Positions 25,416 to 41,087 of a DNA stretch of 64,000 nt are shown here, in pieces (the stretch's first letter is position 1; each line of letters opens with the position of its first letter). Below the pieces are notes generated by a model that searched no databases, had not been told where the DNA came from, and worked only from the letters and a program-made list of their open reading frames with translations. A program made the position numbers and the translations under genes. The stretch comes from Candidatus Brocadiia bacterium. GTDB taxonomy: Bacteria > Planctomycetota > Brocadiia > SM23-32. The stretch is taken from positions 17,886 to 81,885 of the forward strand of contig JBKHIT010000017.1 in assembly GCA_046538485.1 (NCBI GenBank), in the 5' to 3' direction.

Positions 25416-26540
25416 TCAAATCTCGTCCTGCATATTACGCAGAAAACTGCTGATAACCTCCTCGAGCCGGCTATTCTTGATTAAGAAGACATCATGGCCG
25501 TAAGGCGATTCCATTTCGCAATAGCTTGCTCTGACACCGTTGGTCTGTAAGGCCCGCACGATCTGCCGGGATTGATAAGCCGGGAAAAGCCAGTCCCCTG
25601 TAAAAGAAAGCACCAAGAACCGACTTTTCATATCCGCGAAAGCTGAGACGAGCGATCCGAAGTCGGTAACCAAATCGAAATAATCCATCGCTTTGGTAAT
25701 ATAAAGGTAGCTGTTGGCATCAAAGCGCTCCACAAATTTCCCGCCTTGATGTCGCAGATAGCTTTCAACCCGGAAGTCAGGCGGGCCAAAATCGTACCCA
25801 ACGTCCTCCCGTCCCTGAAGTCTTCTGCCAAATTTCTCGTGCATAGACTCATCGCTGAGATACGTAATGTGACCAATCATTCGAGCCACAGCGAGACCAC
25901 GATCCGGCGGTTCGGCGTTGTAATAGTCGCCACCGTTCCATTTCGGATCGGCGTAGATGGCCTGGCGCCCCACTTCATCGAATGCGATCGCCTGCGCGCT
26001 CAGCCTGGCAGCCGTCGCGATCGGTATCGCAGAATATACCATTTCGGGATATTCAATAACCCACCGCAATACCTGCATTCCCCCAAATGAACCACCGATC
26101 ACACAAAGAAGACGGTCCAGACCCAAATGTTCTGTCACCAACGCGTGCTGGACCTTCACCATATCTTGAACAGTCACCATGGGGAAATTCAGCCCATACG
26201 GTTCACACGTTGAAGGATTAAGCGATGCCGGGCCAGTGCTACCTTTGCAACCTCCGATGATATTGGAACAAATAATGAAATAGCGGTCCGTATCGATCGG
26301 TTTCCCCGGCCCCACCATCAGATCCCACCAGCCCTTTTTGCGGTCATCGGGAGAGTGGCGGCCGGCCACATGAGCGTCACCGGAAAGTGCATGGCAAATC
26401 AGAATCGCGTTATCGCGTTCCGGAGCCAGCTCGCCGTAGGTTTCATAAGCCACGTCTATCGGTCCGAGCCTGGCCCCACAGCGCAGTTCTCGTTCCTCAG
26501 GAGGGTGAGCAAACCGCCACGATTGAGCCTTAACAATCAT
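25416..26540 (-). CDS. metX: Homoserine O-acetyltransferase
   Basis: AYETYG, HALSGDAH, GGSFGG nucleophile elbow, RFDANSY, DWLFP, YGHD. Confidence 0.96.
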   Translation of the reverse strand: MIVKAQSWRFAHPPEERELRCGARLGPIDVAYETYGELAPERDNAILICHALSGDAHVAGRHSPDDRKKGWWDLMVGPGKPIDTDRYFIICSNIIGGCKGSTGPASLNPSTCEPYGLNFPMVTVQDMVKVQHALVTEHLGLDRLLCVIGGSFGGMQVLRWVIEYPEMVYSAIPIATAARLSAQAIAFDEVGRQAIYADPKWNGGDYYNAEPPDRGLAVARMIGHITYLSDESMHEKFGRRLQGREDVGYDFGPPDFRVESYLRHQGGKFVERFDANSYLYITKAMDYFDLVTDFGSLVSAFADMKSRFLVLSFTGDWLFPAYQSRQIVRALQTNGVRASYCEMESPYGHDVFLIKNSRLEEVISSFLRNMQDEI

Positions 26541-26651
26541 GCGTGTAACATTCTCCTCCCTCGGCAATCACGAACCGCCATTTGCTCGCGGGGCAACTAT
26601 GGGAACACCAAGCCAACGGTGGCATGTCATACGACTCATATGTGTACAATC

Positions 26652-27971
26652 TTATGGAATCCTCTTATTTGGTGTACAGCCTGACTGCAGATCCAGAGCC
26701 TGATCCAGATCGGATTTGATATCTTCCACGTCCTCGATGCCCACCGAAAGCCGCACAAAATCCTCCGTCACACCAGACTGATCGAGTTCTTCAGCACTGA
26801 GCTGCTGGTGCGTGGTACTGGCGGGGTGGATCGCGAGCGTCCTGGCATCCCCGATATTCGCAAGATGGCTGACGGTCTGGAGGTTATCGATGAAGCGTCG
26901 GCTGGCCTCCCGCCCGCCTTCCACCCCGAAACCGATCATACCACCGAACCCCCCATCGAGATATCGGGCCGCGAGTTCGTGTGTCGGGTGATCCGCCAAC
27001 CCGGGATAATTCACCCAGCTGACGCCGTCATGATCGGAGAGAAATGAAGCAATTTCCGCCGCATTCTCGCAGTGGCGTGGCATGCGAACGTGGAGCGTCT
27101 CGATTCCCTGGATGATAAGAAACGCGTTTTGCGGGCTAATACAGCCGCCCAGATCACGCAGTATCCGGCACCGCGCCCGCATGATGTAAGCGGCTTCCTC
27201 GAACCGTTCGGTGAAACTCACCCCATGGTAGGCGGGGTCCGGCTCGACCATCTCGTCGAACCGCCCACTGTCTTTCCAATCGAAATGTCCTCCGTCGACA
27301 AGCACCCCGCCGATACTGGTCCCGTGGCCACCCAGATACTTTGTCAGTGAGTGCACAACAATATCCGCTCCGTGCTCGAGCGGCCGGCAGAGCCACGGGC
27401 TTGCCATCGTATTGTCCACCATCAGCGGAATCCCGTGTTCGTGGGCCACATCGGCCAGAGCGCACAGATCCGGTACCGTCAGCCGGGGGTTGCCGAGCGT
27501 TTCGGTGTAGACGAGTTTCGTCCGATCCGTGATTGCCTCCGCAAATTCCGCCGGGGCATCCGTATCGGTAAAGGTCGTTTCAATCCCGAATTTATCTGGA
27601 AACGTCTGGCTGAACAGTGTGTATGTCCCTCCGTAGAGTCCGCTGGAAGCCACGATATGATCGCCGTGGCCCATCATCGTCAGGCAGCCGGCGTTTATGG
27701 CTGCCATTCCGCTGGCGAAGGCGAGCCCTCCGACGCCCCCTTCGAGCATAGAGACGCGCTTCTCAAGTACTTCCGTCGTTGGATTCATCAATCGCGTGTA
27801 AATGTAGCCCGGTTCCTCCAGCGCAAAAAGTCTTGCCGCGTGGTCGCTATCCTCGAAAAGGTACGAAGTTGTCTGGTAGATCGGCACGGCGCGGGCGCCG
27901 GTGTCAGTGTCAGGCGTATGACCCCCGAGCAGGCAGGCCGTGTCAAACTTCAGTTCGGGACTTTCGTCCAT
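26652..27971 (-). CDS. metY: O-acetylhomoserine aminocarboxypropyltransferase (sulfhydrylase)
   Basis: [32 protein letters not shown] lysine, HLANIGD, HPASTTH, RLSVGIE. Confidence 0.95.
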
Positions 27972-28007
27972 CGTATTCTCTCCTCAAAAGAAAGTGGGTT
28001 CTCGTTT

Positions 28008-29026
28008 CTAATTACCCACGTAGCGACTGTAAAATTGCCGGGCGACCGATTGGTCGGAAGTTCCCTGCACAATGGCCCGCCCGTTGGGAAAAATCGTCAT
28101 CGTGAGAGCATCATTTTCAATCGTCAGCAGATAGCCGTTGTAGTTGCAGTCGCAGCTCGATTTCAGTCTCTCGAGCAATTTATTCAAAGACAGTTTCTTC
28201 TGTTCCTCAGGCACAATCTGAACAGCTTCCCGACCGCAGAGCGCCCCTGCACTGGAACCTTTATTCCCGTTCAAAAAGTCGAACCGGAGGTGCCCGCAGA
28301 CAGGGCATTCGGCTCTTTTTTCCACTTTCACTGTTTCGAAAGTTCCCCGCCATACATCGCCCGTCACGAGTCCGGGGTCGCCGAAAGTTTCCGTAGCGAG
28401 CAGGCGGAGGGCGAAAGCTGCTTCGAGCGCCCCGACCAGTCCGGGGGCGGGATTAATCACACCGGCAGAATCGCACGTGGGCAGACTCCCGGGATTCGGC
28501 TCCCCGGGCATCATACATCGCAGACACCCGGACTGCCCCGGTCGCACGGGCATAACCGAAAAAGACGCGCCGACGGCACCGGCGTAAATCCAGGGGATAC
28601 CCAGCTTGACGGCTACATCATTGATCAGAAGACGGGTCTCAAAATTGTCGGTCCCGTCCAGAATCACCGTATACCCCTTGAGAAGTTTTTCCGCATTCGG
28701 CGAACGCAGGTCTTCGACCCGTGGGTCCAGCTTGACCTCCGAGTTGATGGAGCCGAGCGTTTTTGCTGCGGCCACGGCTTTTGGCAACTGGTCCTGCGCG
28801 TGGTCCTCATTGAAAAGAGGCTGACGGTGCAGATTCTGGCCCTGCACAAAATCCCGGTCAATAATTCTCAGTTCCCCGATCCCGGCGCGGGTCAGGCTCT
28901 CGCAGCGACAGTGCCGCCGACCGCTCCGCAGCCGACGACAACCGCGGACGCGGCGGAAATCCTCCGTCGCCCTTCACGGCCAATCGGGTCGAATAAGATC
29001 TGTTTTCTGTAGCGTTCTTCAATCAT
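28008..29026 (-). pseudogene. ThiF/MoeB family adenylyltransferase split by a 1-nt frameshift near 28900
   Basis: 5' frame [12 protein letters not shown]...VVGCGAVGGTVA stops at 28892; the next frame continues ESLTRAGIGELRIIDRDFV..NLHRQ, DGTDNFETR, CLRC, PTCDSAG, CPVC. May be a real lesion or a sequence error. Confidence 0.85.
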
Positions 29027-29450
29027 GCTGGGAGTCGGCGTCAGCCTCGTCTCCTGACTCGGAGGTATCTTTATCTTCACCGCGGTAATTCAAAACGGCG
29101 GCTTCCAGCGCTTCTTCAGCCAGCACAGAGCAGTGCTTTTTCTGCGCGGGCAGTCCACCCAGAGCTTCGGTGACCGCTTCATTGGAGACGGTGAGAGCCT
29201 CTTCAATGGTCTTTCCTTTCACCATTTCGGTCATGATGCTGCTGGTGGCGATGGCGGCCGCGCAGCCGAAGGTCTGGAACTTAACGTCGACGATGCGTTC
29301 TTCATTGACCTTGATGTAGATTTTCATGACGTCCCCGCAGACGGGGTTACCGACCTCCCCCACCCCGTCAGCGTCTTCCAGCTGACCGATGTTTTTGGGG
29401 TTCATGAAATGTTCCATTACTTTTTCAGTGTAACTCAACTCAGGTGTCAT
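29019..29450 (-). CDS. iscU: Fe-S cluster scaffold (IscU/NifU N-terminal type)
   Basis: [40 protein letters not shown]. Confidence 0.95.
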
Positions 29451-30312
29451 TTTTTTCTCCCCTTGGTTCGGCATCTTTATTTTTGAGCACTTCATTCATA
29501 CTTCCCGTCCGGTAGCCTTCCAGATCCACCGCGACGTAGGTGAATCCGATCTTGTTGAGTTCCCGCGCGATTTCATTTTTGAGCGGCGAAGCGCTCAGTT
29601 CGGGCACCTTTTCCGGAATAACCTCAATCCGGGCGACATCTCCGTGGCTGCGCACCCTGCACTGCTGAAAACCCTTCTCTCGCAGGACCTTTTCCGCCTT
29701 TTCGACGCGCTGCATCTTTTCTTCTGTGATTTCCTCTCCGTAGGGAAATCGTGATGCCAGGCACGCCATTGAGGGTTTATCCCAGGTCGGCAATCCCATA
29801 CGTTTTGACAATTTTCGAATTTCATCTTTCTCGATTTCAGCTTCCTCAAGCGGGCTTCGCACACCGAGTTCACGGGCCGCGCGCCGTCCGGGTCGGTGAT
29901 CGGAAAGATCGTCCACATTGCTGGCATCGGCCACCCATTGAATACCCCGTTCTCGGGCCATAGAGAGCAGTTCGCCGAACAGCTCTATTTTGCAGTGATA
30001 GCACCGTTCCGGCGAATTTTGACGAAATTCTTCGTTTTCCAGTTCCGAACTCTCAATCATGACATGTTCGACCCCAATCGACTCCGCCAGCCGGCAGGCC
30101 TGCTCGCACTCCTCATCGCTGTAAGGAGCCGAGGTCGCCGTAACGGCCAGAACCTCAACGTCATCGATGTCAGCGGCAACTTTCACCAGGAAGGTACTGT
30201 CGACCCCGCCTGAGAAGGCGATCAACACGCTTCCCATTTCCTGCAGAATTTGTCGGAGGTGCCTTAGCTTGCTCTCGCAGGCAGGTCCTCCACTTTTTTC
30301 CTGTTTCGTCAC
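29440..30312 (-). CDS. larE: ATP-dependent sulfur transferase LarE family (CxxC...C type)
   Basis: [46 protein letters not shown]. Confidence 0.92.
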
Positions 30313-30362
30313 GGCTCGTTCTCTCCTTTCAGCCTCCTCCGTTTTACCATCGGATCGCGCGG

Positions 30363-31277
30363 TCAGCTCGGGACGGCCTCAACCATTCTGTCAACGGCTT
30401 TCCGGGCCTGATGCCGGATCTTTTGGGGTACTTCGACCTGGTAGCGCATTTCTTCCAGCGACCAGAGAATCTTCTGAAGGTCTATCTGTTTCATATTCGG
30501 GCATATAGCCGCCTCGGAGACTGAGTAGAAGCGCTTCTCCGGATTTTCATCTCGCAGACGGTAGATAAGACCGATTTCCGTGCCAACAATCATTTCTTCT
30601 GCTTCACTCTCCCGGGCACGTCGACACATCCCCCCGGTCGATTCGACATAATCGGCCCGCCCACGCACGTCGGGGCGACACTCGGGATGCACCATTACTT
30701 CGGCGTCCGGATGTTCGGCGAGCCGTCTCTCTATATCTTCAACCAGAATTCGGGCGTGCGTTGGACAGTAGCCGTGATGCAGGATCAAGTCCCGGCCGGT
30801 CTGCTCCTGGACATAAGATCCCAGGTGCTGATCGGGAACGAAAATGACGGGGCGTCCGGGCGGTATACTGTTGACCACATCGACGGCATTGGCCGAGGTG
30901 CAACAGTAATCGCTCTCCGCTTTCATCGCCGCACTCGAGTTGACGTATGTAACGACAACCGCGTCGGGATTCTCACGTTTCATCTGACGCAATTTCTCCA
31001 CGGGACACATCCCGACCATCGGGCATCCAACGTTTTCCGCGGGGACAAGAACAGTTTTATCCGGACTGAGAATCGAGGCCGTTTCGGCCATAAATCGCAC
31101 GCCGCAAAAGACGATGACGGTCGCTTCGGTCTCGGCGGCTTCCCGGCTCAACCCGAGGGAATCCCCCCGAAAATCGGCGATGTCCTGCACCTCGGGCAGC
31201 TGGTAGTTGTGAGCCAGAATGATGGCGTCACGCTCGGTCCGGAGTTTTTGTATCTGTTTTTGGATCGTTTCCTGCAT
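30363..31277 (-). CDS. nadA: Quinolinate synthase
   Basis: LAHNYQ, GDSL, FCGVRFMAE, GCPM, YVNS, CCTSAN, CPTH, HPEC, CPNMK. Confidence 0.97.
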   Translation of the reverse strand: MQETIQKQIQKLRTERDAIILAHNYQLPEVQDIADFRGDSLGLSREAAETEATVIVFCGVRFMAETASILSPDKTVLVPAENVGCPMVGMCPVEKLRQMKRENPDAVVVTYVNSSAAMKAESDYCCTSANAVDVVNSIPPGRPVIFVPDQHLGSYVQEQTGRDLILHHGYCPTHARILVEDIERRLAEHPDAEVMVHPECRPDVRGRADYVESTGGMCRRARESEAEEMIVGTEIGLIYRLRDENPEKRFYSVSEAAICPNMKQIDLQKILWSLEEMRYQVEVPQKIRHQARKAVDRMVEAVPS

Positions 31278-31281
31278 GATC

Positions 31282-32457
31282 TTACTCCTGGTCGGATTTT
31301 TTGTACAGAGGCGACATGTCTCGCAATCTCCGAACGATCGGCGGAAGGGCTTCGATGACCCTGTCGATCTCCTCTTCTGTGTTGTCGCGGCCCAGGGAAA
31401 ACCGGAGGCTACCGTGCGCAACAGCGGGATCGAGTCCCATAGCGGTGAGTACGTGGGAGGGATCGAGCGAGCCGGAAGTGCACGCCGAACCGGTGGAGAC
31501 GGCGATGCCCTGGCTGTCGAGGGTCAACAACATCGACTCGCCTTCTACAAACTCGAAGCTGATGTTCAAGATATTGGGCAGCCGGCGTTCTGGATGTCCG
31601 TTCAGGTAGGAATCTTCGATCGTATCCAGCAGTTTTTTTTCAAGTCGATCTCGCAGTCCGGCAAGTCGAGTGGACTGTTCTTCACGCTCCTCCTCGACCA
31701 GGCGAATCGCTTCGCCCAGTCCGACGGCTGAGGCAACGTTCTCTGTGCCGGACCGTTTGTTACGTTCGTGGTGGCCTCCAAAAAAGAGCGGGGAAAACCG
31801 CGTCCCTTTCCGGACATACAGCGCGCCGACACCTTTCGGGCCGTAAATCTTGTGGCCGGAAATTGATAGCAAATCCACACCGAGCTCATCAACAGCCACC
31901 GGTATCTTCCCGACGGCCTGCACGGCGTCGGTATGAACGAACACATTAGAGTCCCTGGCCAGCTCAGATATCTGCTTCAGCGGTTGTATCGTCCCCACTT
32001 CATTATTGGCCAGCATGACACTCACCAGCACCGTGTCCTCATCCAGCGCGTCTTTCAGAGCATCCAGTTCAACGATCCCGTCCGAATCAACCGGCAGGAC
32101 CGTGAGGCGGTATCCCTCCTTCTCCAGGTGCTCCGCGCAGCTCAGCACGGCATGGTGCTCGATGGAAGAGGTGATCAGGTGCGGGTCGGATTCCCCGGAG
32201 GCGCGCATAATCCCCTGGAGGGCAAGGTTGTCGCTCTCGGTCCCGCCACTGGTAAAATATATTTCTTCGGGAGATGCCCCGATAGCCGAGGCGACGTGGC
32301 GCCGGGCATCCTCGAGCGCCTTGCGCGCGTCCTGTCCGAACTTGTGGACGCTTGAGGCGTTTCCAAAGACCTCCGTGTAGTAGGGGACCATGGCGTCGAC
32401 GACTTTGGGACGCACCGGGGTTGTAGCCGCGTGATCAAGGTATATTTTGTCGCTCAT
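31282..32457 (-). CDS. iscS: Cysteine desulfurase (NifS/IscS type)
   Basis: YLDHAATTP, FTSGGTESDN, HTDAVQ, SGHKIYGPKG, STGSACTSGS. Confidence 0.97.
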   Translation of the reverse strand: MSDKIYLDHAATTPVRPKVVDAMVPYYTEVFGNASSVHKFGQDARKALEDARRHVASAIGASPEEIYFTSGGTESDNLALQGIMRASGESDPHLITSSIEHHAVLSCAEHLEKEGYRLTVLPVDSDGIVELDALKDALDEDTVLVSVMLANNEVGTIQPLKQISELARDSNVFVHTDAVQAVGKIPVAVDELGVDLLSISGHKIYGPKGVGALYVRKGTRFSPLFFGGHHERNKRSGTENVASAVGLGEAIRLVEEEREEQSTRLAGLRDRLEKKLLDTIEDSYLNGHPERRLPNILNISFEFVEGESMLLTLDSQGIAVSTGSACTSGSLDPSHVLTAMGLDPAVAHGSLRFSLGRDNTEEEIDRVIEALPPIVRRLRDMSPLYKKSDQE

Positions 32458-32548
32458 TTGTGTCTCCTTTTCCCGAACAAAACCGCGTTATTCAAACCTG
32501 TGAGAGGATCTCAATCTGAGCCAGTCAGCAAATTATGGGAAGTCTTAT

Positions 32549-32794
32549 TTATCCTCCGCTGACAGGTACCACAAACAGCACGGAAGCATCGTTTGGGACC
32601 GCCACTGTTTTCCAGTTTTGTCCCGCCGCAACTCCGTTCACAAAAGCGATGGCCAGCTGATCTTTCTCCAGGGAATCAACTTCGCTTCTCAGCAACTCGT
32701 CCCGCACATCCGCGAGGGTCTTGCCCTCGACTTCAAGACTTTTCTCGGTGTTATCGACTGCTGGCATGCCCATAACTTGAACTCTAACGGTCAT
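32549..32794 (-). CDS. MoaD/ThiS/SAMP-like ubiquitin-fold sulfur carrier (81 aa)
   Basis: FVNG and C-terminal VVPVSGG-stop; ATG overlaps the upstream stop (ATGA). Confidence 0.88.
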   Translation of the reverse strand: MTVRVQVMGMPAVDNTEKSLEVEGKTLADVRDELLRSEVDSLEKDQLAIAFVNGVAAGQNWKTVAVPNDASVLFVVPVSGG

Positions 32795-33600
32795 TCCCAT
32801 CTCTCCAGTATTTCCTGGTGCCGCTGGCAAAGACCCGCCTGCTCGCCGACCTGCGCACGGAGCAACTCCTCTTGCCAGTGCGCGTTGAACAGGCGGCACG
32901 ATTCGTCATCGCAAAAAGGTTCACCGGTCGCATGGTAAAACAACGCCTGAAACAGATAGCCTTTCAACGCCTCATGTGCCCGCGGATCATTTTCGCTCAA
33001 GTACCGTTCGCGCAGCTCATCGGGGATATTGGAACCGCCGGAACCGACTGAAGTGGCGGTGTAGTATTCGCGCGGCCGGGCCGGCGCCTGTACCAGACCA
33101 CTTGTAGAAATCAGAGATGGCACGCCGTAAAGCGAGACCCGCGCGTGGTACCGTCCGACTTTTGGGCGAGTCCCGAAAAGCTGATTGGTCAGCACAACGT
33201 GACAAATTGTGGGGAGGACCTCGTCGGCGTGGAGCAGTTGCGCGAAAGCCTCCAGCAGCATGTGGCCATCGTAGAGCAATCCAGAGGGTTTTTCCCCGCC
33301 GGCTGTGAGAAAGCGTTTCTCGTATTCCACCTCCCCGGGGATCGGATCATCCTCGTCGGCGGCCCGTTCAGGATCACGAACGCGGGCCTTCGCGATCCGC
33401 CGGGCCGTTTGCTCGCGCAGCTCCTCGCCAGCACGGGCCAAACATTCCGACAGAAAATCGTCGAAGACCTCAACATCCACGCTCGGGACCCGCCGGCGAA
33501 GAAATTCCGCGAGCGTTTCCACTTCTATTGAATCCGAACCCGTGCCATCATACAACCGCACGAATTTGGGCGGTGTGGCCCTGTAGGAAGAAGGGTCCAT
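32791..33600 (-). CDS. DUF6775-like putative metallopeptidase (archaemetzincin-related, HExxH not retained)
   Basis: YDG, RYHAR, STSGLVQAPARPREYY, GEPFCDDESCRLFNAHWQEEL...LCQRH, recalled from the mostly archaeal DUF6775/DUF7001-type proteins. Confidence 0.75.
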   Translation of the reverse strand: MDPSSYRATPPKFVRLYDGTGSDSIEVETLAEFLRRRVPSVDVEVFDDFLSECLARAGEELREQTARRIAKARVRDPERAADEDDPIPGEVEYEKRFLTAGGEKPSGLLYDGHMLLEAFAQLLHADEVLPTICHVVLTNQLFGTRPKVGRYHARVSLYGVPSLISTSGLVQAPARPREYYTATSVGSGGSNIPDELRERYLSENDPRAHEALKGYLFQALFYHATGEPFCDDESCRLFNAHWQEELLRAQVGEQAGLCQRHQEILERWE

Positions 33601-34394
33601 CAGCTTTTCTCCAACACATCCATGGCGACTTCAGCCGCTCTGCGCCCTGACAACAGCATAGCGCCGAACGTCGGGCCCATTCGCGGAAGGCCATAGACTG
33701 TGCTGACGGCCATCCCTGTCACGATGAGTCCCGGGTGAAGTTCCCCGGTATGCTCGACCACCAGATCTTCGGATTGATCGACCCACATTCCGCCGTATCC
33801 GGCGATATCAACGACACCTCTGTCGGAGAGTTTAGTAGCGACACAGGCGTCGTGACCGGTGGCGTCGATAACCACGCGGGATTCCAGTGCGACCGGGTCG
33901 ACGCAGGTTATCTGGCGTGGTAGAGACTGAACCGGGGTCCAGTTGATAACCGCACCGGCCACTCGCCCTTCTTCCCGAAGAACGACGTCCTCGAAAACGG
34001 TCATATTGGAGATTTTGACGCCGGCATCACAGGCGGCGCCGATCAGTTTCGAGCACGCGTGGGGACCGTCCGCCACGTGCAATCCCTCCGTCTTTTCCTC
34101 GTGCGGCACACCCAGTTCGTCCAGAATCTGGTCGGCCGGGGTACGGACAGTGAGCTTATTCATCAGGTAACCCCCGAGCCAGAAGCCACCGCCGAGGTAA
34201 TTATTTCGCTCGACAATCAGGGTCTTAACGCCCGCCTGAGCGAGTGTTCGGCCGGCCATCAGACCCGAGGGGCCCGCTCCGATTATCAGGCAGTCGGTCT
34301 CGACGTACTCTTCAAGTTGAGACGAGAAAGCCCCGATAATTGCGCGGGTGACGTCTTTCTCGCCGGCTCGACTGAAAATGTGATTGTCTGACAT
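33600..34394 (-). CDS. thi4: Thi4-type thiazole (ADT) synthase, Cys-containing type
   Basis: [56 protein letters not shown]. Confidence 0.95.
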
Positions 34395-34473
34395 TCGACA
34401 AAACTCCTTTCGAGCTGGTGCATCGTAAGTAAAGAGATTCGCTAATTTCGGATCCCGAGTCCTGGTAACTTAA

Positions 34474-35184
34474 TCAGATACCCGCTCCTTCCTCCAATGA
34501 CCCGACCGGTTCCCGATCGAAGAACTCCTCTCGAGTCCCGGTCGTTGCGGTTGCACGTTCGAACGATTCGAGCTGTTCGCGCAACTCCTTCTGTTCTGCG
34601 GCGAGCCTGTGGATAATTCCGCTGAGCGGGTCGGGCAGGTCGGCGTGATGGAGCATATCCTCTGCGCTGGGTTTTTCATCCACCGTCCTGCCGGGGACTC
34701 CGACCACGGTTGCTCCGTCGGGGACGGACCTGATGACGACGGAGCCGGCTCCGATTCGGGCGTCGGAACCGACCTCGATCGGCCCGAGCAGTATTGCTCC
34801 GGCCCCCATTACAACATGATCGCCTATCGTGGCGTGTCGTTTCTTTTTCTGCAGAGACGTCCCGCCGAGCACAACACCTTGATACATCAGCACATCGTCG
34901 CCGATTTCGGCGGTCTCCCCGATCACCACACCCATACCGTGATCAATGAAGAAACGTCTCCCGATTTCGGCTCCGGGATGGATCTCGATTCCCGTGAGGA
35001 ACCGTCCCACATGGGACAGAATCCGACCGAAAAGTTTCAGATGGTGTTCCCAGAGCCAGTGGCCAATTCGGTGCAACCAGATCGCATGGAGTCCGGGGTA
35101 GCACAGGAGTACCTCAAGAATGCTGCGCGCCGCAGGATCGCGATCAAAGACAGTTTTAATGTCCTCTCTGATCCTCTTGAACAT
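34474..35184 (-). CDS. cysE: Serine O-acetyltransferase
   Basis: [35 protein letters not shown], hexapeptide repeats, LPDP. Confidence 0.97.
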
Positions 35185-35202
35185 CGATCTCTCCTCGTTG
35201 CC

Positions 35203-36126
35203 TCACTCGAAAAGCCATGTTGTCAAATAACGTTCGCCGGTGTCGCAGACAACGGTCACGATCTGTTTGCCTTCATATTCTTCCCGTTCGGCAAGTCGCA
35301 ACGCTGCGCAGACATTCGCTCCGCTGGAAATGCCACCCAGGATCCCTTCCTTCTCGGCGAGCAGGCGGGCCGTCCGTGCCGCATCGTCATCGGTCATTGT
35401 CATGACCTCGTCGATAAGGTCCTTGCGAAGCACGTCGGGAATGAAACCAGCTCCGATACCCTGGATTTTGTGGGCCCCGGGGTCGCCCCCCGATATGACG
35501 GGGGAGGTTTCGGGCTCGACGGCGACGATCTGGACGTCGGGATTCCGGTCTTTCAGAACCTCCCCCACACCGGAGAGCGTCCCGCCGGTACCCACTCCAG
35601 CCACAAACGCATCGACCTTTCCGTCGGTATCTTTCCAGATTTCTTCCGCGGTGGCCTCCCGGTGGATTTTCGGATTAGCAGGATTTTTGAACTGTTGGGG
35701 CATAAAAGCATCGGGGAGTTCATCGACCAATTGCTCGGCTTTTTCCACCGCCCCGGGCATCCCATCGTCGCCCGGTGTGAGGACCAGTTCGGCGCCCAGA
35801 ATGCGCAGAAGCTGGCGGCGTTCCATACTCATACTATCCGGCATCGTCAATTTCAGCGTGTACCCCCTGGCTGCACAGATAAAGGCCAGGGCGATACCGG
35901 TGTTGCCGCTGGTCGGCTCTACGATAACCGTGTCCGGGGTAATCTCCCCGTTTTTCTCGGCCTCCCGAATCATACTCACCCCGATACGGTCTTTAACACT
36001 CGAAAGCGGGTTGAAGGACTCGACCTTAACAAGGACTCCGGCCTTAGCATCGGCTGTCAAACGGTTCAGGCGGATCAACGGGGTATTGCCAACTGTTTCT
36101 GTTATATCGTCGTAAATGTGACCCAT
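35203..36126 (-). CDS. cysK: Cysteine synthase A
   Basis: [47 protein letters not shown]. Confidence 0.98.
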
Positions 36127-36180
36127 TTTGTCTCGTCCTTTTCTGAAGAAGTTTTTCCTCGTCGTAGCAGTTTTTGTTGC

Positions 36181-36624
36181 CTATATCTGATAACTTTGCA
36201 TGTCACTTTCGTGGTATTCTTCGTCCCGCTCAAGCAGATCCTGCAGGGTGGTTCTTTCAAGAACCTCCATGATCGCCTCTTTGACCTCCGCCCAGGTCTT
36301 GCGAGTGGTACACTTTTCTTTCAACGGACACACCTCCGGTTCGTCGACGCATTCAACGGGAGCCGCCGAACCCTCCACCGCCTCAAACACTTCGCTCAGA
36401 TGGCAGTCTCCGGGGGTTTGTGCCAGACAGTATCCGCCGTGAATACCGCGGACAGAACGAACGATACCGGCGGTCTTGAGCTGAGCCATGATGTGCTCGA
36501 GATATTTGGCGGATATATCCTGACGCTCGGCAATCTCACGCACCGATAGATTGTCCTCGGGGTAGGCCCGCGCCAGTTCAACCAGCGCCCGCGTCCCATA
36601 CCGCATTTTGGTTGAAAACTGCAT
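36181..36624 (-). CDS. Rrf2 family regulator (IscR-like, three Cys)
   Basis: STKMRYG, YLEHI, SVRGIHGGY, ECVDEPEVCPLKEKC; heads the sulfur gene cluster. Confidence 0.95.
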   Translation of the reverse strand: MQFSTKMRYGTRALVELARAYPEDNLSVREIAERQDISAKYLEHIMAQLKTAGIVRSVRGIHGGYCLAQTPGDCHLSEVFEAVEGSAAPVECVDEPEVCPLKEKCTTRKTWAEVKEAIMEVLERTTLQDLLERDEEYHESDMQSYQI

Positions 36625-36636
36625 TCCATCCTCCTC

Positions 36637-36692
36637 TCCTATTATTCCTATTATACAACTATGATTTTAGCAGCGATTGTTTAATTTGTCAA
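36637..36692 (-). promoter_or_regulatory. Promoter and probable Rrf2 operator of the sulfur cluster
   Basis: Minus strand TTGACA (36692-36687), 17 bp, TAAAAT (36669-36664); overlapping imperfect palindrome ATTCCTAT-TATACA-ACTATGATTT and direct repeat TCCTATTAT x2. Confidence 0.72.
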
Positions 36693-36826
36693 ATAACACT
36701 CTTTTAGACATTATCAAAGAGGGTTTTTGGCCGACAAACGGGTAGCCTGCCGAAGTCATTTGCGTTGATTGTAACGATTAGTTGTGCAGCAGTGCGAATA
36801 GGGAAAAAATTTACCCCAAGAACGTG

Positions 36827-36903
36827 CTCTCAGCGGCTCTGGGGACTGTGTGGGACCGCAGCACGCCGATTTTTACCCCGGAACCCCCAAAATGAAAGTG
36901 TGC
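36827..36903 (+). repeat. Dispersed element X, left module (copy 1)
   Basis: 36859-36903 is identical over 45 bp to 63625-63669 (CAGCACGCCGATTTTTACCCCGGAACCCCCAAAATGAAAGTGTGC); upstream flanks also similar. Confidence 0.9.
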
Positions 36904-36975
36904 GGTATCCAACGTTTTCCCGAACGACACAGCGGTGAGTAAAACGCACCTCCGGCCCGTTTTAACACACCGCAA

Positions 36976-37000
36976 TCCACCGCGAGTCGCGGTGGACTAC
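36976..37000 (-). repeat. GTAG-type REP-like palindrome
   Basis: Minus strand GTAG-TCCACCGCG-ACT-CGCGGTGGA. Confidence 0.6.
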
Positions 37001-37010
37001 ATTAAGGTTG

Positions 37011-37083
37011 CTGCAGTGTACTTAGTGAGCTCTGATGGCGAAACTGGTATTCCCGGAAATTGTATCCCCCACGGGGGGCGCCG
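37011..37083 (+). repeat. Dispersed element Y (copy 1)
   Basis: CTGCAGTGTACTTAGTGAGCTCTGATGGCGAAACTGGTATTCCCGGAAATTG aligns to the reverse complement of 44512-44584. Confidence 0.75.
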
Positions 37084-37172
37084 CTGGCGCGCGGGACATC
37101 GCACGGTCCGGTGCCGCCGACATCCCGGGGTTGCGGGAAATGTCTCGTGCCGCAAGACGCAGCAGGTTTGTG

Positions 37173-37276
37173 GTGGGCCTTCAGCCCACTTTTTCTCAAT
37201 GCACACCTGTACCCCAGGGCTCCGACGGCCTGCGGCCCCCGTCACCCCGGGCTATTATATACTGCCCTTTCAGGGC
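37173..37276 (+). repeat. REP-like element Z (CACCCCGGG...GCCCtttcaGGGC)
   Basis: Hairpins GTGGGC-CTTCA-GCCCAC and GCCC-TTTCA-GGGC flank a CCCCAGGG...CCCCGGG stem; same layout at 52108-52171 and 55891-55954. Confidence 0.6.
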
Positions 37277-37594
37277 AATGAACGGCAGGGCGCGCTCGGC
37301 GATAACCCCTTGCATCTGCGTGGCATCCCGGATACGTGGAGCCCCGGTGGGTTTCCCCGCTTTTCTCAAGCGGCGCCAGTGCTGCAGCTGCGCGGAAGCC
37401 AGGCGCAGGAGTATTTTCATACTTCAAGTGCAGGCTGACAAAGCAGATGCAGTGCTGGCGTCGCTCCCGGAGGGCGAACCGCTGTTTTTCGAATTACAGA
37501 CTGTGTACTGAGATTAGATGCGAAATATAGTGCAAAGTCTTTTTGGATGCCGTTTATAATAATTATTTCTTTAGGTTCGTGAGAAATGCGGGTT

Positions 37595-37897
37595 CCGGGA
37601 GATCTGTCGGCTGATAGTGCGCGTTCTGAACTCCAGCCTGCGGCTGAAGTCCAATCCGCTCGCGGCGATTGAGACTCGAGTTCAGCTGAGCCCGCCAGCG
37701 GCGGGCGAAACTGGACTTGAGGCGGACAAATGGAGGAAAGTTCGCCAACAAAAAAACTTCTCTCCTCGCAGCCAGGTCGCTGACCGGCAGGCATCTTACC
37801 TGTCAACGGTTCAGTTGCGAGGGACTCCGGCGTTCCCAGGATGGGGAACGGGATCCGGGGTGGCTCAATCCAGCATTCTGTTCCGAAGGAAAATTAA
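37595..37897 (+). repeat. Dispersed element X, palindromic core and right module (copy 1)
   Basis: 37671-37729 identical (59 bp) to 63747-63805; 37802-37897 nearly identical to 63905-64000; core also at 55236-55436 on the minus strand. Confidence 0.92.
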
Positions 37898-38137
37898 GGA
37901 ATGTGCGCCCCGTCCGAGGGCAGAGTCAACCGGGATTTTTGGGGAATGTTCGGCTGTCGGGCAGCGAAAAGACCTACAGCGCAAATTCCTTGCCGGGCAT
38001 TGCATATGGTGTAGAAACCGATTATTCTAACGTTACAGGGTATACAGAGAGTCAGAATTTTTTATCCTTCCGGGCGCGAAAATGGGGGGGGTTGTTTGCC
38101 CAAAAGATCGCCCCGGTTTTCACAAAGGAAAAATACG

Positions 38138-39431: not shown

Positions 39432-41087
39432 CTATTCCCCGAGGATCTGCTGAAGATCTTCTTCGGGTGTGGAGATGGGCATGATGTTGAATTTGTCCAC
39501 GAGGACATCCAGAACTGCCGGTTCCACGAACGCCGGGAGTGTCGGTCCGAGTCTCATATCCTCAATGCCCAGATGCAACAGCGTCAGCAGAATCGCCACG
39601 GCTTTCTGCTCATACCAGGAAAGCACAAGCGAGAGAGGCAGCTCATTCACGCCGACATCAAAAGCATCCGAGAGAGCCAGAGCGATCTGAATCGCCGAAT
39701 ATGAGTCGTTGCACTGGCCGACATCGAGCAGACGCGGTATCCCGCCGATGTCGCCGAATTCAAGCTTGTTGAAACGGTATTTGCCGCAGGCCAGCGTGAG
39801 AATGACGCAGTCATCCGGCACGGACTGGGCCAGTTCGGTGTAGTAATTCCGACCCGGTTTCGCTCCGTCACAACCGCCGATCAAGAAAAAGTGTCGGATG
39901 TCACCATTTTTCACAGCATCCACGACCTGGTCAGCCACGTTCGTGACAGCGTTTCGGCCGAATCCAACCGTGATATTGTGCTCCTCCCCGTCATCTGTGA
40001 AACCGGGCTGAGCGAGGGCGGCTTCTACTACCGGGGAAAAATCGCTGTCGTCGATATGCCTCACCCCCGGCCATCCTGTCGGTCCCGATGTAAAGAGTCG
40101 GTCTTTATAGCTATCCTTCGGTTTCATCAGACAGTTGGTGGTCATCAGGATCGCGCCCGGAAACTCGTCGAATTCCTCCCGCTGACGTTGCCAGGCCCCT
40201 CCATAATTTCCGACGAGATGATCGTACTTGTTCAGTTCAGGGTAGCCGTGACAGGGCAACATCTCACCGTGTGTGTAGACGTTGATGCCAGAGCCCTCGG
40301 TCTGCTTGAGAATTTCGTCAAGATCTTTCAGGTCATGGCCGGACACAACTATAGCTTTCCCTTTCACGGGCGTAACTCGCACGGGGGTCGGCTCCGGATG
40401 TCCGTATGTCCCCGTATTGGCGGCATCGAGCAGTTCCATCGCCCGCAGGTTGAGTTCGCCGGTCTCCAGCGATTTGGCGAGCAAATCTTTAAGATTATCA
40501 GGTTCGGAAGCCACAAAGCTTAAAAGTTTGTGGAACCCGCCGTAAAGGTCAGCGTCCTCCTCACCGAGAACCTTCGCATGATAGGTATAAGCGCCGGCCC
40601 CTTTGAGTCCGTAGACTATCAGTTCCTGCAGTCCGGCGACGTCAGCTCCGTATTTATCGATCCGGTTCTCGATACTGACCCCTTCGCCCTGCTCTATGAG
40701 ACCGTTCAGATCATCGGCCGGCCTCCAGTCTTCGATCCATGCGATGTCGTCATCAAGTTCGACTCCGGCGTCTTTGCACATTCCTGCAGCTACGTCCCGC
40801 ACTTCAGCTGCCCGATGAATAAAATCGGCGAAATCTTCAGCATCGAAATTTACGTTTGTGAGAGTCGTAAAAACGGCCCAGGGGACAAACGCGTCCACCT
40901 CCGGGTCACGCTTCCCGGCACTTTGCGCCCTATGCGCACAGGCCGATATGCCCTTGATCGCATGGATGAGGAGATCCTGCAGCGCTGCCACATCGGGGTC
41001 TTTACCGCATACGCCGTGCATCGTACAACCTTCGCCTTTCGCCGTCTGTTCACATTGATAGCAAAACATGGTCTCTTTTTGCTCCAT
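39432..41087 (-). CDS. hcp: Hybrid cluster protein (hydroxylamine/NO reductase)
   Basis: MFCYQCEQT...C..GVCGK, SGHDL, YTHGEMLP, TTNC, GGCDG, LACGKYRF, GQCND, WYEQKA. Confidence 0.98.
   Translation of the reverse strand: MEQKETMFCYQCEQTAKGEGCTMHGVCGKDPDVAALQDLLIHAIKGISACAHRAQSAGKRDPEVDAFVPWAVFTTLTNVNFDAEDFADFIHRAAEVRDVAAGMCKDAGVELDDDIAWIEDWRPADDLNGLIEQGEGVSIENRIDKYGADVAGLQELIVYGLKGAGAYTYHAKVLGEEDADLYGGFHKLLSFVASEPDNLKDLLAKSLETGELNLRAMELLDAANTGTYGHPEPTPVRVTPVKGKAIVVSGHDLKDLDEILKQTEGSGINVYTHGEMLPCHGYPELNKYDHLVGNYGGAWQRQREEFDEFPGAILMTTNCLMKPKDSYKDRLFTSGPTGWPGVRHIDDSDFSPVVEAALAQPGFTDDGEEHNITVGFGRNAVTNVADQVVDAVKNGDIRHFFLIGGCDGAKPGRNYYTELAQSVPDDCVILTLACGKYRFNKLEFGDIGGIPRLLDVGQCNDSYSAIQIALALSDAFDVGVNELPLSLVLSWYEQKAVAILLTLLHLGIEDMRLGPTLPAFVEPAVLDVLVDKFNIMPISTPEEDLQQILGE

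Follow-up and report, generated by a model that had tools for sequence, protein, structure and literature searches.

The window analysed here is a stretch of 64,000 nucleotides (nt) from a Candidatus Brocadiia bacterium (contig JBKHIT010000017.1), and its minus strand carries the gene for a thiazole synthase of the Cys type, Thi4, which overlaps the gene for a protein of the DUF6775 family, which in turn overlaps the gene for a small carrier of the ThiS/MoaD family. The adjacency of the first two genes, their coupling and a model of the complex of their products suggest that DUF6775 serves prokaryotic Cys-type Thi4 as its dedicated accessory subunit, is non-proteolytic and docks on the enzyme, and this is the explanation that we somewhat favour. 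The conserved core is the Thi4-DUF6775 pair, and the trio with the carrier is a lineage-specific elaboration of it. The locus as a whole is probably a Cys-type Thi4-DUF6775 cassette inside an Rrf2-led operon for cysteine, iron-sulfur (Fe-S) and sulfur mobilisation.

Both the gene set and the two hypotheses on its function are already known, having been published by Oliveira-Filho, Van Gelder, Obe, Voiniciuc, Wilson and Hanson (bioRxiv 2025, 10.1101/2025.09.23.678117; ACS Omega 2026, PMC13325395), and a full-text literature search for DUF6775 or DUF7001 returned only this work, as preprint and journal version. According to these authors, whose survey covered the neighbourhoods of suicide-type Thi4s, more than 400 of them in 26 phyla or more, DUF6775 is the commonest neighbour (26 of 40 representative genomes, Table S3), followed among the same 40 by ThiF (12), CysK (9), ThiS (8) and NifS (7) and then by NifU, CysE, LarE and MnmA; ThiG is absent in their seven example genomes. 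DUF6775 is described there as an archaemetzincin-like fold without HExxH, and two hypotheses are proposed, an alternative sulfur donor or the repair of dehydroalanine on the one hand and DUF6775 as a metal helper on the other. The reading of the window made from the sequence alone (the sequence-only reading), in which the three coupled genes were taken for an undescribed module of sulfur relay or enzyme recycling, is reasonable as a hypothesis but not new.

The features on which that reading was based are directly visible in the sequence. The stop codon of Thi4 (TGA, 33602-33600, minus strand) overlaps the start codon of DUF6775 (ATG, 33600-33598) in the string TGATG, and the stop codon of DUF6775 (TGA, 32793-32791) overlaps the start codon of the carrier (ATG, 32794-32792) in the string ATGA. 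The carrier has 81 residues and ends in PVSGG, and iscS, as the next gene, starts 91 nt past it.

Type and conservation of the Thi4-DUF6775 pair

The window Thi4 scores well above the profile cut-offs (PF01946, 237.5 bits with a cut-off of 26.2; TIGR00292, 250.8 bits with a cut-off of 148.3). Alignment to solved structures pairs Cys164, in the motif QITCVDP, with the cysteine of Arabidopsis THI1 (1rp0, QSCMDPN), and the same column is occupied by His in the methanococcal enzymes 4y4n and 4y4m and by Met in the Thermovibrio THI4 (7rk0). By this alignment the window Thi4 is of the Cys (suicide) type, in agreement with the earlier assignment. Catalytic Thi4s bear His or another residue at the position of the active-site Cys, as stated by Oliveira-Filho et al. 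(10.1101/2025.09.23.678117), and His was counted there in 171 of 199 non-Cys Thi4 sequences (Joshi et al. 2021, PMC8454699); in the Haloferax volcanii study, Cys165 of the archaeal enzyme is equated with yeast Cys205. Because Cys164 is present, the NCBIfam equivalog name of TIGR00292, "sulfide-dependent", is misleading for the window Thi4. Two further cysteines, Cys114 and Cys122, are kept in 48 of 49 and in 49 of 49 DUF6775-adjacent Thi4s, respectively, and are absent from the aligned methanococcal, Thermovibrio and plant enzymes.

The survey of DUF6775, with one genome per species, yielded 591 relatives among 598 pattern matches, and the best 80 loci, from many bacterial and archaeal phyla, were examined. 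In 67 of these 80 loci, the gene directly upstream, on the same strand, encodes Thi4 (66 by script, and additionally L026, in which DUF6775 is cut by the contig end). Two of the others have Thi4 approximately 3 kb upstream (within 3.4 kb), seven have none despite at least 900 nt of room, and four are undeterminable. The two genes are mostly separated by a few bases or overlap by 4, 23 or 26 nt. The active-site Cys is present in all 68 Thi4s that were typed at DUF6775 loci, in the motif R-[EQA]-[ILV]-[TS]-C-VDP, and in all 49 rows of the alignment of DUF6775-adjacent Thi4s.

The survey of Thi4 gives the same picture from the other side. Among the best 80 of 501 metagenome relatives, which are 66-77% identical to the window Thi4, DUF6775 follows directly in 61 and at 1.5 kb in one more, five do not have it despite at least 600 nt of room, and 13 are undeterminable; their active-site residue is Cys in 78 and Ser in one, and one was unread by the pattern. 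Of eight genomes searched that have a split pair or a DUF6775 locus without Thi4, seven encode a full-length Cys-type Thi4 elsewhere, the eighth having none. The adjacency of Thi4 and DUF6775 is far beyond chance.

The third member of the trio is much less constant. After 9 of the 14 GG-ending frames past DUF6775 at the genome loci had been discarded on inspection by eye for shortness or an odd composition, a carrier-like beta-grasp gene ending in GG is present directly after DUF6775 in 5 of the 75 genome loci with room (L002, L006, L018, L022 and L079), and Pfam confirms ThiS for three of these five. At three further genome loci, a ThiS gene confirmed by Pfam is present in another place within 6 kb. 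In the metagenome set, in which all 6 such frames were discarded in the same manner, no GG carrier follows DUF6775 in any of 46 loci with room or in one shorter locus, L176. The two closest relatives of the window, L002 and L006, have its arrangement, including the overlap of DUF6775 and the carrier. Of the trio that had been put forward as a unit, the Thi4-DUF6775 pair is thus conserved widely, and a carrier directly after it is not conserved in general.

The genome of the window encodes a second full-length Cys-type Thi4 (VRCVDP; C84:106662-107345, locus L099 1456-2241), which is followed by a second NadA gene (L099 2360-3298), not by DUF6775, and which has QK where the DUF6775-adjacent Thi4s have EH. 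nadA is clustered with both thi4 genes of this genome, directly downstream on C84 and three genes downstream in the window, which may reflect the use of nicotinamide adenine dinucleotide (NAD) as a Thi4 substrate. A complete deltaproteobacterial chromosome (G007; loci L085 and L093) provides a natural control of the pairing, with a His-type Thi4 approximately 1 Mb away from DUF6775 and a Cys-type Thi4 3 kb from it. In one metagenome-assembled genome (MAG) of the Actinomycetes, two copies of DUF6775 are present (L021 and L036), neither directly beside Thi4, and the Cys-type Thi4 of that MAG (L089) carries the variant motif GHDAV, with AK replacing EH.

Fold of DUF6775 and the predicted complex with Thi4

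The DUF6775 protein of the window matches the profiles DUF6775 (PF20565, 250.1 bits) and DUF7001 (PF22529, 232.2 bits) over their full length (profile positions 3-258/259). Its structure model has a mean predicted local distance difference test score (pLDDT) of 91.9 and a predicted template-modelling score (pTM) of 0.90, and a Foldseek comparison of this model with the PDB reveals archaemetzincins as the top matches, 2x7m (E 4.4e-4) followed by 3lmc, 3zvs and 4axq, and as the only clear structural relatives. A profile search against PDB sequences returned chance cohesin matches only (E 0.012-0.039), and NCBIfam has no model that matches either DUF6775 or the carrier.

DUF6775 shares with the archaemetzincins (AmzA; 2x7m, 3zvs, 4axq and 3lmc) the alpha/beta/alpha fold (E 4.4e-4 to 0.08, TM-score 0.54-0.66 on the target) and the C-terminal C-x4-C...C-x2-C/H metal site with its G-x3-C spacing, and the family retains the part of the archaemetzincin motif that reads G-x3-C-x4-C-R-L...C-x2-H. 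In contrast to them, it is approximately 90 residues longer, the fourth Cys is a His, new invariant residues are present, and the catalytic zinc site HExxHxxGxxH/D is missing. HExxH is found nowhere in the window protein or in the family consensus, and the aligned stretch reads Q218-A-L-F-Y-H-A-T-G226-E-P-F-C230. As judged from these motifs, DUF6775 is an archaemetzincin fold in which the HExxH protease site has been lost, and it should not be classed as a metzincin peptidase.

In an alignment of 49 DUF6775 sequences, the Cys3His metal site (C230-x4-C235-x22-C258-x2-H261) is invariant, as are E94, Y110, H152, D205, Q218, N239, H241 and Q243, and at least 90% of the sequences keep E90, H134, R150, R154 and K213. 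The alignment contains no conserved Cys beyond the Cys3His site, which makes DUF6775 a poor candidate for a persulfide carrier. A dedicated search for fused or longer forms of 472-2000 residues found none, which is itself weak evidence. An Elusimicrobia MAG (L045:5998-7923, plus strand) has DUF6775 and a complete MnmA (tRNA 2-thiouridine synthase) in one frame of 641 residues, with a LarE-family gene following it, and this frame is either a real fusion or the result of a lost stop codon.

Co-folding of Thi4 and DUF6775 gave models with an interface score (ipSAE, interaction prediction score from aligned errors) of 0.62, 0.56 and 0.62, compared with 0.00 for all three controls, and this score mark, which serves here as a rough guide, was attained by 116 of 157 solved complexes, whereas just 2 of 215 mismatched pairs attained it. 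At least 84% of the contacts are common to the runs, and the partner pLDDT is at least 85. In the complex model, residues 195-199, 207-219 and 233-237 of Thi4 contact residues 75-76, 84-90, 93, 96-97 and 105-108 of DUF6775. The latter adjoin the invariant E94 and the highly conserved E90, and they fall in the segment by which DUF6775 exceeds the archaemetzincin chain length of 160-190 residues. The Thi4 side of the interface includes E214 (49 of 49 DUF6775-adjacent Thi4s) and H215 (47 of 49). The dyad EH is thus present in 47 of 49 adjacent Thi4s and is QK, AK or EK in three unlinked copies; the corresponding position is RN in the methanococcal enzymes, KN in that of Thermovibrio and RL in that of plants. 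These models suggest that DUF6775 probably binds Thi4 directly, in a specific, conserved and probably physical partnership. Of the complexes of Thi4, DUF6775 and the carrier that had been envisaged from the sequence, the modelling covered this pair.

The carrier, its E1 and the surrounding operon

The carrier (MTVRV...VVPVSGG) exceeds the PF02597 cut-off of 22.5 bits with a score of 23.9. Its model has a beta-grasp fold (pLDDT 84.6), which Foldseek matches to MoaD (1nvi and 1fm0), SAMP1 (3po0), CysO (3dwg) and ubiquitin, and it is a genuine GG protein of the ThiS/MoaD fold. In the genome assembly to which the window belongs (5.19 Mb in 143 contigs, 88.3% complete), the carrier is the only ThiS-family gene found and the E1 of the cluster is the only ThiF-family gene found. 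ThiG (PF05690) has no match in the window or in this assembly, so that the absence of thiG first noted for the window extends to the available genome, and MoaE (PF02391) has none in the assembly either. Since neither ThiG nor MoaE is found, and to the extent that the assembly is complete, the carrier and the E1 cannot be serving these two enzymes.

The E1 gene itself is interrupted. Its first 44 codons (MIEERY...GGTVAARA, followed by a stop codon) are in one frame and the rest in another, and the switch occurs at the run GAGAG at 28897-28901. Two additional bases cause the frameshift. In one study, contigs of three runs match the window exactly at this site, and a relative of approximately 95% identity from a second study has two bases fewer at 28897 and its E1 in a single frame; the comparison was performed on contigs, so that minority intact alleles are possible, and one of the three runs may be the source of the window. 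It appears that the cassette has been retained in this population and that the only E1 able to activate the carrier has been lost. No functional cognate E1 for the sulfur carrier is found, the only ThiF-family gene being the one split by the frameshift, and because the E1 is broken, the carrier cannot be activated in this population. The E1 that the sequence-only reading placed in the cluster is therefore present in position, but a working relay in this organism is not supported. The ThiS-like carrier and the E1 are an optional, lineage-specific add-on, because most cassettes lack them and they are inactivated here, and because the Cys-type Thi4 of Haloferax needs neither the only ThiF homologue of that organism nor DUF6775.

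The trio is embedded in twelve minus-strand genes that follow one another with short gaps or overlaps, namely those for Rrf2, CysK, CysE, Thi4, DUF6775, the carrier, IscS, NadA, LarE, IscU, ThiF and O-acetylhomoserine sulfhydrylase (Table 1). Sigma-70-like consensus sites number 7, compared with 4.8 expected from shuffles; the best of them, with 11 of 12 positions, lies just 5' of the Rrf2 gene and is likely, by its sequence, to be the operon promoter. An Rfam scan of 26000-38000 detected no family and hence no thiamine pyrophosphate riboswitch.

Table 1. Features of the operon that contains the Thi4-DUF6775 cassette, in the order of transcription (window coordinates; PLP, pyridoxal phosphate).
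Feature	Position	Strand	Evidence
Sigma-70-like promoter candidate, TTGACA-17-TAAAAT, 11/12, TG extension	36664..36692	-	consensus match alone
Rrf2/IscR-type transcription regulator	36181..36624	-	PF02082 3.1e-41
CysK-type cysteine synthase, PLP enzyme	35203..36126	-	PF00291 6.8e-77
CysE serine acetyltransferase	34474..35184	-	Hexapep and SATase_N
Thi4 thiazole synthase, Cys type by alignment, active-site Cys164 in QITCVDP	33600..34394	-	PF01946 1.6e-70, TIGR00292 250.8 bits
DUF6775/DUF7001 protein, archaemetzincin-like fold, no HExxH	32791..33600	-	PF20565 3.3e-74, DUF7001 8.2e-69
ThiS/MoaD-family beta-grasp carrier, 81 residues, ending PVSGG	32549..32794	-	PF02597 23.9 bits
IscS/NifS cysteine desulfurase	31282..32457	-	PF00266 5.7e-97
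NadA quinolinate synthase (NAD is a Thi4 substrate)	30363..31277	-	PF02445 1e-122
LarE-family PP-loop sulfur transferase	29440..30312	-	TIGR00268 1.2e-100
IscU/NifU scaffold	29019..29495	-	PF01592 4.3e-52
ThiF/MoeB-family E1, frameshifted at GAGAG run 28897-28901	28008..29026	-	family profiles
O-acetylhomoserine sulfhydrylase-type PLP enzyme, 36 nt after the E1 gene	26652..27971	-	PF01053 1e-137

Similar neighbours recur elsewhere. Within the 80 DUF6775 loci, IscS is present in 19, CysK in 18, ThiF in 13, LarE in 10, sulfhydrylase-family genes in 9, Rrf2 in 9, NadA in 8, CysE in 7 and IscU in 4, and the 80 metagenome Thi4 loci contain LarE in 17 and IscS in 15.

Two other proteins of the window may be mentioned. 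The LarE-family protein has a C-x2-C pair and the cysteine of an ACLASR motif, and three such cysteines in LarE mark the Fe-S-cluster type, not the sacrificial type. A gene for the nickel-insertion protein LarC is located elsewhere in the genome (C81:6057-7190), and a genuine role of the LarE-family protein in the nickel-pincer cofactor is therefore possible. Outside the operon, an open reading frame of 551 residues (39432-41087, minus strand) carries an N-terminal Cys-rich motif and, as we presume, resembles a hybrid-cluster protein.

Possible roles of DUF6775 and comparison with known systems

In the explanation that we favour, the conserved PLPGE-x-YE segment of DUF6775 (residues 84-97) would meet the clade-specific E214-H215 patch of Thi4, and DUF6775 would handle the metal that sulfur transfer by Thi4 requires and that is loosely bound. 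Metal handling is the most likely role of DUF6775, although we hold it tentatively, because the protein keeps a metal site, because both faces of the predicted contact are rich in Glu and His, and because TRASH proteins set a precedent in non-Cys Thi4s. The positioning or regeneration of the sulfur source is the next most likely role, possible though not probable, and it is given this weight because DUF6775 is linked exclusively to Cys-type Thi4. As the E1 is broken, the sulfur of Thi4 here would most likely come from the enzyme's own Cys, or else from the sulfide or persulfide that the co-transcribed CysE, CysK and IscS make. A bolder version, in which DUF6775 as a stoichiometric partner on the E214-H215 patch turns the suicide Thi4 into a catalytic enzyme, with sulfur from IscS or from a ThiS-type thiocarboxylate feeding the reaction or re-sulfurating dehydroalanine-164, is rather doubtful.

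Several observations weigh against the docking of DUF6775 on Thi4 as a metal-handling subunit. The score of the complex expresses model confidence only, and the co-folding used our own alignments of 49 sequences each from the same loci, which makes the calibration rough. The predicted interface includes neither Cys164 nor the Asp and His of the CVDP and GHD motifs. The E214-H215 dyad, considered as a marker of the DUF6775 partner, was rejected in this use, as EH is also present in 3 of 5 close metagenome relatives without a DUF6775 neighbour. Haloarchaeal Cys-type Thi4s lack DUF6775, none of 14 control genomes having matched it, and such Thi4s without DUF6775 are likewise recorded in Table S3 of Oliveira-Filho et al. 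With respect to the metal, the Cys3His site is inherited from a structural zinc site and is not an obvious delivery site, and the occurrence of DUF6775 solely with Cys-type Thi4s agrees with a role specific to Cys or dehydroalanine no less well than with one in metal handling. Additionally, DUF6775 was obtained only in insoluble form by the same authors, and inductively coupled plasma mass spectrometry of the inclusion bodies detected no metal (PMC13325395).

The main alternative is a relay or repair of sulfur, in which an IscS persulfide or a carrier thiocarboxylate replaces the sulfur of Cys164 or restores sulfur to the dehydroalanine, DUF6775 serves as an adaptor or a regenerase, and Thi4 becomes a multi-turnover enzyme. 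This would agree with the restriction of DUF6775 to Cys-type Thi4, in 68 of 68 typed Thi4s and, in the genome with both types, beside the Cys-type copy. It would also agree with the position of the cassette among sulfur-mobilising genes (IscS, CysK, ThiF and LarE at the DUF6775 loci, LarE and IscS at the Thi4 loci), with the single frame of DUF6775 and MnmA, with the carrier directly downstream of DUF6775 at five loci, and with the lack of any ThiG or MoaE found as its client in this genome. In the pilot experiments of Oliveira-Filho et al., one Thi4 that lies in a cluster with ThiS and ThiF rescued an E. coli thiG mutant better than a thiG thiF thiS mutant (PMC13325395). However, a second Thi4 showed no dependence on ThiS or ThiF in E. 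coli in the same work, aerobic ammonia oxidisers are entered in Table S3 with DUF6775 but without a mark for ThiS or ThiF, and the Cys-type Thi4 of Haloferax volcanii requires Cys165 and works without the only ThiF homologue of that organism. The want of a conserved Cys in DUF6775 outside the Cys3His site, the absence of the carrier from most cassettes and the frameshift in the sole E1 argue against it as well, and we regard this relay as possible but not likely. The proposal in the sequence-only reading that the carrier, IscS and ThiF, together with DUF6775, feed sulfur to Thi4 or re-sulfurate it thus keeps the Thi4-DUF6775 partnership and the missing ThiG and MoaE clients, and loses the conservation of the trio and the intact E1. 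With a somewhat smaller likelihood, the carrier and the E1 serve the PLP sulfhydrylases of the operon (O-acetylhomoserine sulfhydrylase, CysK or both) in a thiocarboxylate-dependent synthesis of homocysteine or cysteine of the HcyS/CysO type, for which HcyS and CysO are precedents, and the coupling to DUF6775 is then operon packing. The O-acetylhomoserine sulfhydrylase gene starts just past the end of the E1 gene, CysO is among the matches of the carrier model (3dwg_C and 4n6e_B), a Pfam-confirmed ThiS gene lies approximately 200 nt upstream of the CysK gene at L030, and sulfhydrylase-family and CysK genes are found at DUF6775 loci in the numbers given above. On the other hand, the carrier of the window is placed between DUF6775 and IscS and not beside a sulfhydrylase, L002 and L006 retain the same overlap of DUF6775 and the carrier, and the E1 is broken for this purpose too.

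The remaining alternatives concern the fate of Thi4 or of its product. That DUF6775 is an unusual but active peptidase, which clears spent Thi4 in the dehydroalanine form, would account for the metzincin-like fold, the Pfam label "probable metallopeptidase", the exclusive tie to the single-turnover type of Thi4 and the predicted contact with it; the motif HExxHxxGxxH/D is absent from all aligned members, as is stated in PMC13325395 too, and the predicted contact is made via an insertion and not via the former active-site cleft, which renders this explanation improbable. Hydrolysis by DUF6775 of the Thi4 product, ADP-thiazole, to thiazole phosphate is more improbable still: the invariant or nearly invariant residues H134, R150, H152, R154 and K213 could bind a nucleotide diphosphate and the pair is operon-coupled, yet non-Cys Thi4s give the same product and are not linked to DUF6775, as indicated by the distant His-type copy in G007 and by the lack of a DUF6775 match in the 14 control genomes. 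Least probable by our estimate is a conjugation of the carrier to Thi4 as a SAMP- or Urm1-like tag that marks the spent enzyme for turnover. The beta-grasp GG carrier does resemble SAMP1 and ubiquitin in its model, but the E1 is frameshifted, most cassettes lack the carrier and no gene for conjugation or deconjugation is seen in the cluster, the genome not having been searched for a JAMM protease, and nothing was found in support of the tagging suggested in the sequence-only reading.

The suicide Thi4 is among the most expensive enzymes to run, and its turnover in plants has been estimated to cost 2-4% of biomass accumulation (PMC8454699). Both enzymology and crop engineering would be interested in a factor from nature by which the enzyme is spared or recharged, and if DUF6775 does recharge Thi4, it would be the first factor dedicated to repairing or re-charging an enzyme that serves as a sacrificial sulfur donor. 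The model of the binding also implies that co-expression with Thi4 might cure the insolubility of DUF6775 that blocked the published metal tests.

Compared with known systems, the cassette recalls the TRASH neighbours of Thi4. Genes for TRASH metal-binding proteins abut non-Cys (catalytic) THI4 genes and were proposed to supply the metal (Joshi et al. 2021, PMC8454699). In both cases a Cys-rich metal-binding protein is encoded beside Thi4, the TRASH protein being small, but its fold and family are unrelated to those of DUF6775, and it is tied to the His/Met type of Thi4, not to the Cys type. The combination of a beta-grasp GG carrier, a ThiF-family E1 and a cysteine desulfurase in one operon resembles the ThiS-ThiF-ThiG, MoaD-MoeB-MoaE and CysO/HcyS systems, from which the window differs in that its genome has no ThiG or MoaE that was found, the carrier does not adjoin a sulfhydrylase and the E1 is broken. 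The closest counterparts are the clusters of Oliveira-Filho et al., which contain the same set of DUF6775, ThiS, ThiF, NifS, NifU, CysK, CysE and LarE in genomes without ThiG. Relative to the article text and Tables S1-S4 of that work, the window is distinguished by the coupling of all three genes through TGATG and ATGA, by the frameshifted E1 and by the second Cys-type Thi4 without DUF6775, and the control-backed complex model and its interface residues are added here. The window thereby contributes a further example of the cassette, names interface residues as candidates for mutation and brings in a natural population whose E1 is dead.

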